Of a stretch of 32,000 nucleotides of DNA, positions 840 through 27,594 are shown piece after piece. The DNA is from Candidatus Bathyarchaeia archaeon (GTDB taxonomy: Archaea; Thermoproteota; Bathyarchaeia; 40CM-2-53-6): the NCBI GenBank assembly GCA_050013255.1, contig JBEKFP010000001.1, forward strand, positions 65,417 through 97,416. The letters run 5' to 3'. Both the position numbers and the translations under genes were made by a program. The first letter of the stretch is position 1. Each line of letters opens with the position of its first letter. The notes under the pieces are model-generated. The model was given only the letters and a program-made list of their open reading frames with translations. It was not told where the DNA came from and made no database searches.

Positions 840-1121
840 ATGGCCGCCATGGTTGATACGTTGACCGTTTCTATTGCCATTCTTGCAGTGGTCGTACTAG
901 TTGGCATAATTTTCTGGTTTCAAAGGACTCGCCGAAACGAACTCGGCATACCTGTAATCGAACTTGAAAAGCTGGTCAAATGCAATTCCTGCGGTTCTCA
1001 AATTCCGGAGGGTGCCCGGAAATGCGCTTTTTGTGGCGCCTGGCAACGCCCACTCGATTCCGGAGAACAAATAAAGGCCTCACAGCGAAATGGCACGAAC
1101 GCCGCCGACGGATCACACTAG
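840..1121 (+). CDS. Small membrane-anchored zinc-ribbon protein (hypothetical)
   Basis: 93 aa with an ATG start. It has one hydrophobic helix (VSIAILAVVVLVGIIFWF) followed by a CxxC-x9-CxxC zinc ribbon (CNSCGSQIPEGARKCAFCG). It is divergent from moeA, and its TAG stop (1119-1121) touches the first base of the tRNA. Confidence 0.5.
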   Translation: MAAMVDTLTVSIAILAVVVLVGIIFWFQRTRRNELGIPVIELEKLVKCNSCGSQIPEGARKCAFCGAWQRPLDSGEQIKASQRNGTNAADGSH

Positions 1122-1256
1122 CCGCCGTATGCGCATTCTCGCAGACGACAGCTCAGTGGTGGAGCAGCGGACCCTTATTGGAAAGGGGCTGAAGCTGTTA
1201 AGCGGGCAGACGCAGCTACCCGTTGGTCGCAGGTTCGAGCCCTGCCGGCGGCGCCA
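1121..1256 (+). tRNA. tRNA-Asn (anticodon GTT) interrupted by three introns, with genomically encoded CCA
   Basis: The exons are 1121-1129, 1151-1170, 1194-1200 and 1218-1253, followed by CCA at 1254-1256. They splice to a 72-nt cloverleaf: GCCGCCG TA GCTC AGTGGTG GAGC A GCGGG CTGTTAA CCCGT TGGTC GCAGG TTCGAGC CCTGC CGGCGGC G. The acceptor stem is a perfect 7 bp, with U8, a GG D-loop, a TTCGAGC T-loop and discriminator G73. The intron at 1171-1193 sits in a strict hBHBh' motif, and the intron at 1201-1217 sits at the canonical 37/38 position with a 4-bp central helix. Confidence 0.8.
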
Positions 1257-4291: not shown

Positions 4292-4732
4292 TTGTGCCTA
4301 AACTTTGTTGAGGGCGGCGACTGTCACCTGACTGGCGGAAAATGCCTCCTCGGACTGAGCGGAGCTTCAGCAGAGAATCGCAATTGCGACTGTGAGTTCC
4401 ACGGGAATTTTGATGTCTGGGTCACACAGAAGAACCAACTTCTCATAACAGATATGGGTTTTCCATCCGAGGAACCAAAACAATGTTTAGCGCTCGGCAT
4501 CAACGAAACCCTAGCAAGAAAAATCGCGTCGGACAAAGTGGATAAGCTCCGAACATGCATACTAACAACTGAACGCAGATGTTTGAAATGTAGTCGGCAG
4601 TTTTGGATAACTCAGCATACATCCAAGCCTGGCCTTCTCGAAACTGGAAAAGGCTACTTCTGCCCCGACTGCATTGGCGAAGGCAGAAGTATCGAGGAGA
4701 GGCTGGGTGTTCTAGGTTATTGGTGCGGTTAA
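4292..4732 (+). CDS. Hypothetical Cys-rich protein with a C-terminal zinc ribbon
   Basis: 146 aa from a TTG start, with an internal ATG at 4454 that gives 92 aa. The C-terminus has CLKC-x22-CPDC. This is the only sizeable ORF filling a 535-bp gap, and I recognise no family. The start site is uncertain. Confidence 0.35.
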   Translation: MCLNFVEGGDCHLTGGKCLLGLSGASAENRNCDCEFHGNFDVWVTQKNQLLITDMGFPSEEPKQCLALGINETLARKIASDKVDKLRTCILTTERRCLKCSRQFWITQHTSKPGLLETGKGYFCPDCIGEGRSIEERLGVLGYWCG

Positions 4733-5371: not shown

Positions 5372-6168
5372 TGCTTCTCAACTCCGAAGGTATCTTTGTA
5401 GACACCTAGCGGGAACTTCTTCGCCATGTGCTCGTACACGAAGCGTTTGGCGTCTAGGATGGGCATCTTCCAGTTAATCGAGCAGGTGCTTAGCAGTTCG
5501 ACGAAGGCGAAACCGCCCAGGGCTTGGACTTTGAACGCGTTCTCCACCGATTTCTTCGCGTCAAGCAAATTCTTGATCGTATACACCTTGCCCCTCTGGC
5601 TTGAGAGCTCTTGAACTGCCAAGCTTGCACGTTTCACGTAGGCTGCACCGTCTATTCCTGAGAGGAGTTTTGAAACATCGAGCTCAGTCCCTGTCATTGC
5701 TGCATTTCTTCCGAATGGCGTGGTAGTAGTTACCTGACCTTCGAGTGTGGTTGGGGCCATTTGGCCGCCGGTCATACCGTAGATTGCGTTGTTCACGAGG
5801 AAGACTGTGATCGGGGTGTTTCTCTTCGCTGCGTACACCAATTCCAAGAGCCCGATGGAGGCGGCGTCTCCGTCGCCCTGAACTGTGAAGACGGTAAGTT
5901 CAGGCTTAACCCTCTTCAGGCCTGCGGCAACCGCAGGAGCTCTTCCGTGAGGCGCCACGATGTGGTCGCAGTTGAAGTAATTGTAAGCCAGGACACTGCA
6001 GCCTACTGAGTCGATCATAACCGTTTTTTCACGAATTCGTAGTTCATCCATTGCGGCGGCGATCAACCGGGTGAGCGTGCCATGTTCGCATCCTGCGCAG
6101 TAGTGCGTTGGGTTATCGGTCAAAGATTCCAGTTTGCCTATCTTTACTTTGAGAGAAAGTTGACTCAT
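5368..6168 (-). CDS. 2-oxoacid:ferredoxin oxidoreductase, beta (TPP-binding) subunit
   Basis: 266 aa. It carries the CAGCEHG cysteine motif and the GDGD...N TPP/Mg motif (VQGDGDAASIGLLE...NNAIYGMTGGQ). Confidence 0.9.
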   Translation of the reverse strand: MSQLSLKVKIGKLESLTDNPTHYCAGCEHGTLTRLIAAAMDELRIREKTVMIDSVGCSVLAYNYFNCDHIVAPHGRAPAVAAGLKRVKPELTVFTVQGDGDAASIGLLELVYAAKRNTPITVFLVNNAIYGMTGGQMAPTTLEGQVTTTTPFGRNAAMTGTELDVSKLLSGIDGAAYVKRASLAVQELSSQRGKVYTIKNLLDAKKSVENAFKVQALGGFAFVELLSTCSINWKMPILDAKRFVYEHMAKKFPLGVYKDTFGVEKQ

Positions 6169-25959: not shown

Positions 25960-27594
25960 ATGGGTAAATGGATTATCAACTCTGCTTGGCCTTACGTAAA
26001 TTCAGTTCCCCACCTTGGAACATTCATCCACCTCCTCAGCGCGGACGTCTACACCAGATACCTCCGCCTCAAAGGCGAAGAAGTTATAGCAGTAACTGGC
26101 TCGGACGAGCATGGAACACCGATTGAGGTAGAAGCGATAAGCAAAGGTGTCCCACCGAAGCAGTTGACGGATGAAATTCACAAGCAAATCTGCAACTTGT
26201 TAGATGTGTACAATATACGATTTGACAATTACACAAGGACCGAAAACCCCGTCCACATCCGGTATACCCAAGACCTCTACCGAAAAGTATACGCGAATGG
26301 TTATGTGTATACGGAAAATGTCAACCTACCTTACTGTGAAAGGGACCAAAGATTCCTCCCCGACCGCTTTGTTGAAGGCACGTGCCCCCACTGCGCGTAC
26401 GAACAAGCTAGGGGAGACCAATGCGAATCATGCGGCCGCGTACTAGACCCACTTGAATTAATCCGCCCAAAATGCGTTTTTTGCGGCTCAACGCCTACCG
26501 TTAAGTCGTCAACACACTGGTTCTTTGACCTCCCGAAGTTCCGGGATAAGCTCCTAAGACTAGTCCAAGAAAACAAACAGCTCCCGGAGAACGCCCGCAA
26601 CTTCTCACTAAAATGGCTCGAAGAAGGACTCAAACCTCGAGCATTAACTAGAGACAACAAGTGGGGGATTCCAGCACCGTTTCCTGGAGCGGAAGGAAAA
26701 ACCATCTACGTCTGGTTGGAAGCCGTCCTAGGCTACGTTTCAGCATCGATAGAATGGGCGGAAAAATCAGGAAAGCCCGATGCTTGGAAGGAATTTTGGT
26801 TCGACAAGCAGACCAAAAACGTGCATTTCATCGGGAAGGATAACATACCCTTCCACGTGATCATTTTTCCAAGCCTCCTCCTAGCCACGCATGAGGACTA
26901 TGTGCTGCCATGGCAAGTCTCCTCAACCGAATTCATCTTGTTTGAGGGGCAGAAATTCTCGAAGAGCAAGAAGGTAGGAGTCTGGATTGATGAAGCGTTG
27001 AAAGTTGCCCCGGCCGAGTATTGGCGCTACATACTCATCGCTATACGACCGGAAGCTCGAGACGCAAACTTCACGTGGCGTGACTTCGAAGCCCATATCA
27101 ACAGCGAACTAAACGATGTACTCGGAAACTTCGTTCACCGCACCCTCACATTCGTCAACAACCAGTTCGATTCAAAAATCCCCGAGCCGCACGAGCTGGA
27201 CGAGAAGGATGAGGCTTTGAAGAATCGAATAGAGTCATCACCGTTGAAGGTTGGCTCACTGTTCGACCAATTCCAGTTGAGGAGTGCCCTTGGAGAAATC
27301 ATTGAACTTGCCCGGGCAGGTAATCAATACCTTAGTGAACGGGAACCCTGGCACCTCATAAAGAAGGACAAAGACAAAGCGTCTACAACGCTTTACTTCG
27401 CCACGCAACTCGTCGGATCGATTAGCATCCTAATTTCCCCCGTCCTTCCGGAAACGGCCCAGCACATACGCGATCAACTCAACTTGACACATGATGTGAA
27501 GTGGTCGGACGCGGGAAAACTTGAGTTGGAAGTCGGCCACATCATAGGGAAAGCCACACCGCTCTTTCACAAGGTTTCAGCTCCAGCCCAGTGA
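25960..27594 (+). CDS. metG: Methionine--tRNA ligase (no C-terminal tRNA-binding appendage)
   Basis: 544 aa. The HIGH-region variant is PHLGT, and the KMSKS variant is KFSKSK. The zinc knuckles read CPHC...CESC...CVFC. Confidence 0.95.
   Translation: MGKWIINSAWPYVNSVPHLGTFIHLLSADVYTRYLRLKGEEVIAVTGSDEHGTPIEVEAISKGVPPKQLTDEIHKQICNLLDVYNIRFDNYTRTENPVHIRYTQDLYRKVYANGYVYTENVNLPYCERDQRFLPDRFVEGTCPHCAYEQARGDQCESCGRVLDPLELIRPKCVFCGSTPTVKSSTHWFFDLPKFRDKLLRLVQENKQLPENARNFSLKWLEEGLKPRALTRDNKWGIPAPFPGAEGKTIYVWLEAVLGYVSASIEWAEKSGKPDAWKEFWFDKQTKNVHFIGKDNIPFHVIIFPSLLLATHEDYVLPWQVSSTEFILFEGQKFSKSKKVGVWIDEALKVAPAEYWRYILIAIRPEARDANFTWRDFEAHINSELNDVLGNFVHRTLTFVNNQFDSKIPEPHELDEKDEALKNRIESSPLKVGSLFDQFQLRSALGEIIELARAGNQYLSEREPWHLIKKDKDKASTTLYFATQLVGSISILISPVLPETAQHIRDQLNLTHDVKWSDAGKLELEVGHIIGKATPLFHKVSAPAQ

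Follow-up and report, generated by a model that had tools for sequence, protein, structure and literature searches.

In a stretch of 32,000 nucleotides (nt) from a Candidatus Bathyarchaeia archaeon (contig JBEKFP010000001.1 of GenBank assembly GCA_050013255.1, positions 65,417 to 97,416; the whole stretch is called the window here), the segment 1121-1256 of the forward strand very probably represents a functional tRNA-Asn(GUU) gene with three short introns, located at positions 8/9, 30/31 and 37/38 of the tRNA. Archaeal tRNA genes with several introns in bulge-helix-bulge (BHB) motifs are a known class, and this gene belongs to it. In its relatives the 8/9 intron is accompanied by a short leader element that lies upstream of the gene and is complementary to the mature 3' end, for which we tentatively propose a role in precursor processing. 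The three-intron structure, and the asparagine rather than the phenylalanine parse, had already been put forward in an earlier note made from the letters of the DNA alone; both are borne out by intronless orthologues that carry the predicted exons and the anticodon GTT.

The two acceptor strands, GCCGCCG (1121-1127) and CGGCGGC (1246-1252), are separated by 118 nt, and the 3' strand is followed by G73 and a genomically encoded CCA, read directly in the sequence at 1254-1256. Removal of three segments yields a 75-nt cloverleaf, which ARAGORN calls as tRNA-Asn(gtt) with a sense anticodon. The exons, all on the forward strand, are exon 1 (G1-U8, 1121-1128), which is the same as in the intronless orthologues, and, according to the ARAGORN parse and a check of the pairings, exon 2 (A9-G30, 1150-1170), exon 3 (G31-A37, 1194-1200, with the anticodon GUU at 1197-1199) and exon 4 (A38-G73, 1218-1253). 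In the unspliced window, ARAGORN found no tRNA and Rfam no family at gathering score. With permissive filters the unspliced gene reached 28.3 bits on the Rfam tRNA model (threshold 29) across 1141-1253; this match picks up the D-arm, the T-arm and the 3' acceptor strand, and takes GCAGACG inside the first intron as a false 5' strand. The acceptor coordinates of the earlier note, as well as the pairings it gave for the second and third introns, were all found in the sequence.

A degenerate pattern of the 3' exon, run against the GTDB species representatives, retrieved 95 orthologous loci, nearly all of them titled Bathyarchaeota, Bathyarchaeia or Hecatellales. The suggestion that the gene would be at home in a Thermoproteales-like archaeon is thus not borne out: its relatives are Bathyarchaeia, a class that NCBI places in the kingdom Thermoproteati, phylum Bathyarchaeota, and not in the order Thermoproteales. 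The identical tRNA locus together with its flanking acetyltransferase gene is present on nine independent metagenome contigs, including one of the NCBI metagenome-assembled genome (MAG) GCA_049586655.1. Three intronless orthologues (L015, L017 and L058) were scanned with the Rfam tRNA model, the covariance-model scoring being done on these genes in place of the spliced window sequence, and scored 71-76 bits at a gathering score of 29. The intronless genes have the anticodon GTT and exactly the exon sequence that had been predicted, and the spliced window gene is identical to the L015 gene at 68 of 72 positions. Since the intronless genes match the predicted exons and carry GTT, we regard the parse as settled and the gene as not being a pseudogene.

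The number of introns per locus ranges from zero to three, and they are always found at exactly 8/9, 30/31 and 37/38 (introns A, B and C, respectively). Counting the window, all three introns occur in 51 loci, A and B in 23, B only in nine, C only in three, A and C in one, and none in eight, with precursors between 73 and 213 nt in length. Of the 75 loci with intron A, 72 encode CCA, as do 13 of the 20 without it. Across the roughly 90 species-level relatives, each of the three introns is supported by BHB statistics and covariation. The nearest relative of the window (L045) has identical introns A and B and an intron C of 11 nt. At two further places the loci show peculiarities of their own. 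The tRNA-Asn gene of L048 (CAZBGY010000004.1, match 5698-5732, minus strand) is devoid of introns A and B, and its 37/38 intron is 139 nt long with long inverted-repeat ends, compared with 11-28 nt for this intron in other loci. The MAG JZ_bin_23 (JAGTQB01) has two tRNA-Asn genes (L067 and L072), one with introns A and B, the other with intron B only and an 11-bp leader element; this pair could be either paralogues or a binning artefact.

Intron B (1171-1193, forward strand, 23 nt) sits in a strict hBHBh' motif, that is, a central helix (H) with a 3-nt bulge (B) on either side, bordered by an outer (h) and an inner (h') helix, of which all pairs were checked. Helix h is formed by 1163-1164 with 1195-1196 (2 bp), H by 1165-1168 with 1188-1191 (4 bp) and h' by 1172-1176 with 1183-1187 (5 bp), and the bulges are GGA and AAG. 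The strict definition calls for outer helices of at least two Watson-Crick pairs (PMC7714728), and intron B agrees with it in every criterion. The H strands CAGC and GCUG form four of four pairs in 72 of 73 unique orthologues, and h' is strongly covarying, its second pair being U-A in 34, C-G in 30 and U-G in eight of them.

Intron C (1201-1217, forward strand, 17 nt), at the canonical 37/38 site, forms an hBH motif according to the pairing check. Its H (1195-1198 with 1212-1215) has four of four pairs, one of them G.U; the bulges are TAA and CTA, h' is a single base pair, and the anticodon stem serves as the outer helix. By the strict definition intron C is a relaxed motif, as h' is limited to 1 bp and h exists only after removal of intron B. 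The intron strand of H varies among the orthologues (GCAG, GUAG, ACAG, GCGG, ACGG) and pairs at all four positions with CUGU in 33 of 40 unique ones. As a side observation, the 3' part of this intron (1206-1217) reads GCAGAC and then GCAGCU, and resembles the 11-nt intron of L045 with a 6-nt duplication of the segment that holds the central helix and bulge; such a duplication would give rise to one more potential 3' splice motif (1206-1212), which is non-productive.

The motifs of introns B and C cannot coexist in full. Intron B uses C25-C28 for its central and C32-U33 for its outer helix, and the outer helix of intron C depends on G27-G31, its central helix on C32-U35. As G27, C28, C32 and U33 are shared, the full motifs are mutually exclusive, and since the full motif of intron C needs the anticodon stem, which is present only once intron B has been removed, intron B is probably spliced ahead of intron C. 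The same order had been suggested in the earlier note; it is a reasonable proposal, grounded in the competition of the two motifs for these nucleotides. Ordered splicing of multi-intron tRNAs as such is already described and not new. The motifs of introns A and B are compatible with each other. By analogy to established archaeal tRNA splicing, the splicing endonuclease (EndA) would cut after the second base of each 3-nt bulge, and the exons would then be joined by an RtcB-type ligase.

Intron A (1129-1149, forward strand, 21 nt) was harder to place by inspection of the window only, and the earlier note had left its site at 8/9 or 9/10 with nothing but a relaxed motif. It is indeed not a strict one, but its register could be fixed: 8/9 is the sole register common to all 75 orthologues with this intron, and a near-canonical BHB can be drawn there. 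Its outer helix h is formed by 1120-1122 with 1151-1153 (3 bp including A-1:U12), H by 1123-1126 with 1144-1147 and h' by 1130-1133 with 1140-1143 (4 bp), with the bulges GUA and ACA. H has three of four pairs in the window; the remaining position is a C.A mismatch, by which the intron falls outside the strict definition and into the relaxed class. Among 62 unique orthologues the H strand is GACG in 36 (three of four pairs) and GGCG or GGUG in 25 (four of four). Helix h' covaries, the first pair being U-A in 31 and C-G in 26 unique sequences.

The leader element CGCCGCCG is located at 1100-1107 on the forward strand and is complementary to C66-G73 (1246-1253) by eight Watson-Crick pairs. A complement of the 3' end (positions 66-76), 7-11 nt in length, was found in 75 of the 75 intron-A loci, 4-25 nt before +1, and in many of these it has the form UGG(C/U)GCCGCCG, which covers G73 and CCA as well. 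Among the loci without intron A, four of 20 have the element and 16 have nothing comparable (Fisher's exact test, p = 9e-15, not corrected for phylogeny). Substitutions in the core of the element are all C-to-T, which keep a G.U pair, and none is G-to-A; in L090 the 3' end is CUA and the leader has the matching AG. The spacer ACGGAUCACACUA between the element and +1 (1108-1120, forward strand) differs between clades and is not conserved. The four element-bearing loci without intron A, and also L101, are B-only loci related to a clade in which the loci with both A and B have TGGCGCCGCC. In three of these four the element retains 10-11 bp, and in L088 10 bp are formed via two C-to-U changes; L101, which is of the same clade and counted among the 16, has lost the element.

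No second copy of an acceptor strand was found near the other tRNAs in the 95 loci, so that tRNA-Asn is alone in having one, and the neighbouring multi-intron tRNA-Met genes have neither an 8/9 intron nor such a leader element. We also scanned metagenomes for tRNAs that have a GGGCCCG acceptor together with an 8/9-type intron (pattern GGGCCCGTN{12,40}GGGCNNAGCTCAG). By their appearance the 120 hits are false positives: a chance upstream match stands before a tRNA 5' end of the usual, probably bacterial, kind, such as GGGGCGTAGCTCAG, and CGGGCCC occurs within about 230 nt downstream in only eight of the 120. We considered and rejected an additional, fourth intron that would separate the upstream GCCGCCG copy from the true acceptor, as no register has a 4-bp central helix and the base next to the copy is not a conserved U8.

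A putative promoter was assigned to 1058-1075 (forward strand) on the basis of conservation, consisting of the B recognition element-like TTCCGGAGAAC and a TATA-like AAATAAA at 1069-1075. In the intron-A loci the conserved TATA box (TTTAAATA, TTTTAATAAA or AAATAAA) ends 20-24 nt before the element (mode 22-23; 24 nt in the window); where intron A is missing, the A/T box mostly lies with its end 22-30 nt ahead of +1. With a TATA box at about 22 nt ahead of it, the element should mark where the primary transcript begins. Within the window's clade the promoter DNA is conserved, even though the upstream open reading frame (ORF) that overlaps it is read in differing frames. In the window this ORF (840-1121, forward strand) would encode a membrane-anchored zinc-ribbon protein (...IELEKLVKCNSCGSQIPEGARKCAFCGAWQ...); the C-terminal tail, which is not conserved, crosses the promoter and the leader of the tRNA gene, and the stop codon of the ORF overlaps the +1 of the tRNA. 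In most relatives, the ORF stops inside the TATA box, 47-51 nt before +1.

Folding predictions favour pairing of the leader with the 3' end. For 1098-1256, the minimum-free-energy structure of ViennaRNA contains the helix of leader and 3' end and has -68.4 kcal/mol, versus -59.0 kcal/mol with the true acceptor forced, and the leader helix is favoured in 73 of 74 loci with a probability of about 0.98. In the window's minimum-free-energy fold the spacer segment CACACUA pairs with U12-G20, which lengthens the outer helix of the intron A motif. As a general extension of this motif we discarded the spacer:D-arm pairing, which is strong only in the clade of L043, L037, L038, L077, L089, L096 and L014 (z -3.5 to -5.3); in the window it is present and no better than in shuffled sequence.

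Our tentative proposal, a model built on these folds and on comparison of the loci, is that the leader acts as a "placeholder" for the 5' acceptor strand. The primary transcript would begin at the leader element, some 20 nt ahead of the mature 5' end, and the element would pair with the 3' acceptor strand and G73 and thus stand in for the real 5' strand. Nucleotides 1-6 would thereby become available to intron A and to G10-C11 as pairing partners, building the intron A motif. Because this motif needs acceptor nucleotides 1-6, the leader is proposed to occupy the 3' strand for as long as intron A is present. Once splicing has taken place, the leader would be displaced by the true 5' strand and cut off by RNase P. 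The leader would in this way keep the precursor in a non-cloverleaf form in which the 8/9 motif can assemble, and splicing would precede maturation of the 5' end.

Several observations weigh against parts of this interpretation. The central helix of intron A contains the C.A mismatch in the window as in 36 of the 62 unique orthologues, and the unconstrained fold of the window does not settle on the register of its BHB (-61.7 kcal/mol when forced versus -68.4 kcal/mol at the minimum). In the nearest-neighbour model the leader helix persists when the introns are removed in silico, so its resolution must come from a factor that the model does not cover (tertiary folding, RNase P or a nuclease). 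The association of element and intron A is phylogenetically non-independent. Three B-only loci retain the full element, and its role may therefore not hang on intron A alone. Finally, another A/T box is found about 27 nt ahead of +1 in several clades; if this is the promoter, the element is untranscribed in those clades.

The last two points are also what speaks for a rather unlikely, yet not negligible, alternative, according to which the upstream GCCGCCG is no RNA partner of the 3' end but a relic of a duplicated or ancestral 5' end, or a promoter-proximal element acting at the level of DNA. Such an origin would suit a sequence that equals the 5' acceptor strand, that is retained in three loci without intron A and that has, in several clades, an A/T box immediately upstream (about 27 nt before +1), so that it would not be transcribed. 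Against this, the element is kept in 75 of 75 lineages while the adjoining spacer has diverged beyond recognition. In many loci complementarity extends to G73, C74, C75 and A76 (TGGCGCCGCCG), unlike in any copy of the 5' strand, and the only substitutions seen are those compatible with G.U pairing. Moreover, the conserved TATA box (TTTAAATA or AAATAAA) has a fixed distance of about 22 nt to the element and not to +1.

Introns A and C match at 12 of 13 positions, a similarity that had been read in the earlier note as a hint of intron duplication or transposition. The match is present in the window and was reached by only 16 of 5000 shuffles (p about 0.003); furthermore, transposition of introns is documented in the Thermoproteales, according to PMC4033280, which cites Fujishima 2010. 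Homology of the two introns by an event within the gene nevertheless appears quite improbable. The match extends 4 nt into exon 2 in the case of intron A but is wholly intronic in intron C, and the matched bases play different structural roles (h' and H in intron A; old H, bulge and new H in intron C). With a similarity score of 10.5 the window exceeds the relatives with the same intron A (4-9.5), and the 11-nt intron C of the nearest relative L045 is without half of the match. CAGC and GCUG recur in this gene because several helices pair with the same bases of the anticodon arm, and we therefore regard the similarity mostly as a by-product of this shared pairing. The hint of transposition is accordingly weak, and this reading finds no clear support.

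A decaying tRNA pseudogene with merely intron-like insertions might come to mind, as standard tRNA finders overlook the gene and the central helix of intron A is mismatched. This is, however, highly improbable, given intact exons that are near-identical to intronless genes of more than 70 bits, retention of the same three sites with covarying BHB helices in 51 species-level lineages, and the finding that in most MAGs this tRNA-Asn locus was the sole one found.

Weakest of all is the reading as tRNA-Phe(GAA), with exons joined 1170^1188 and 1194^1218 and the anticodon loop CUGAAGA, which we reject. It is formally valid, as the earlier note had remarked: upon removal of 1171-1187 and 1195-1217, ARAGORN calls tRNA-Phe(gaa), and the alternative 37/38 intron could make three of four central-helix pairs. 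A BHB is, however, absent at 1187|1188, and the discriminator is G73, when that of archaeal tRNA-Phe is A73. Every intronless and partly spliced orthologue has GTT, and loci without intron C cannot be parsed as Phe. The motif CUGAAG consists of the GCUG strand, which is obliged to pair with C25-C28, plus the 3-nt bulge; this bulge starts with AA in 52 unique orthologues, AG in 17, AC in two and AU in two, so that the putative Phe anticodon reads GAA, GAG, GAC or GAU on an otherwise identical tRNA body. Since its middle base varies in this way (A, G, C or U), there is no evidence for a decoy function of the loop, and the decoy proposal is not supported. A similar 30/31 arrangement is found in the neighbouring tRNA-Met, with a complementary strand of its own.

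The tRNA-Met(CAT) neighbours of these genes in Bathyarchaeia are also multi-intron (L063, L030 and L103). In L063 (CAZHMI010000087.1), about 104 nt upstream of the T-arm at 4627 (plus strand), there are three putative introns, in the D-loop, at a 30/31-like position and at 37/38. At its 3' end the 30/31-type intron of tRNA-Met has a strand that can pair with nucleotides 25-28, and then AA|G. Elsewhere in the window, 27420-27481 on the minus strand shows a weak match to the archaeal C/D-box small RNA family sR32 (20.7 bits versus a gathering score of 40, E = 0.15), possibly from a divergent guide RNA of the C/D-box type.

Up to three BHB introns per tRNA gene are known from the Thermoproteales (Pyrobaculum, Thermofilum, Caldivirga; PMC4033280, PMC8450103, PMC3218864). 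The gene described here resembles these in having three short introns, one at the canonical and two at non-canonical sites, with strict or relaxed BHB motifs; it also matches the known maximum of three introns, and one of its motifs can likewise form only once another intron is gone (PMC4033280, PMC8450103, PMC3218864). In contrast to them, the host belongs to the Bathyarchaeia (phylum Bathyarchaeota), the same three sites are conserved over many species instead of being scattered in a lineage-specific manner, and the 8/9 intron is accompanied by a conserved leader complementary to the 3' end. In the literature searched we found nothing specific on tRNA introns of Bathyarchaeia.

The leader bears some likeness to split and permuted tRNA genes (Nanoarchaeum, Caldivirga, Thermofilum), where a sequence outside of the tRNA pairs so that the splicing substrate can form (PMC4090602, PMC4033280). 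Unlike in those systems, the gene is contiguous and collinear, the leader forms no BHB (none at the boundary of leader and exon in any register), and it pairs with the mature 3' acceptor strand in competition with the real 5' strand. In eukaryotic pre-tRNAs, pairing of leader and trailer extends the acceptor stem. Here, too, pairing would link a 5' leader to the 3' region of the precursor, although it would replace the acceptor stem rather than extend it. No description of leader/acceptor pairing, or of a cis-acting leader that enables an intron near the acceptor stem, was found in the literature searched. The leader element is apparently undescribed and possibly the part of the finding that could be new.

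Taken together, heavily interrupted tRNA genes are not peculiar to the Thermoproteales, as a three-intron tRNA-Asn gene is conserved over much of the Bathyarchaeia. These organisms are among the most abundant uncultured archaeal groups. Because common tRNA finders miss the gene, estimates of MAG completeness and of the tRNA complement can be wrong for their genomes. Orthologues with zero to three introns at fixed sites provide a clean natural series for the study of intron gain and loss. If the placeholder model holds true, the leader would explain how an intron is spliced whose BHB needs the 5' strand of the acceptor stem, and would offer a case, open to direct testing, in which the order of processing steps is controlled by the RNA sequence itself.

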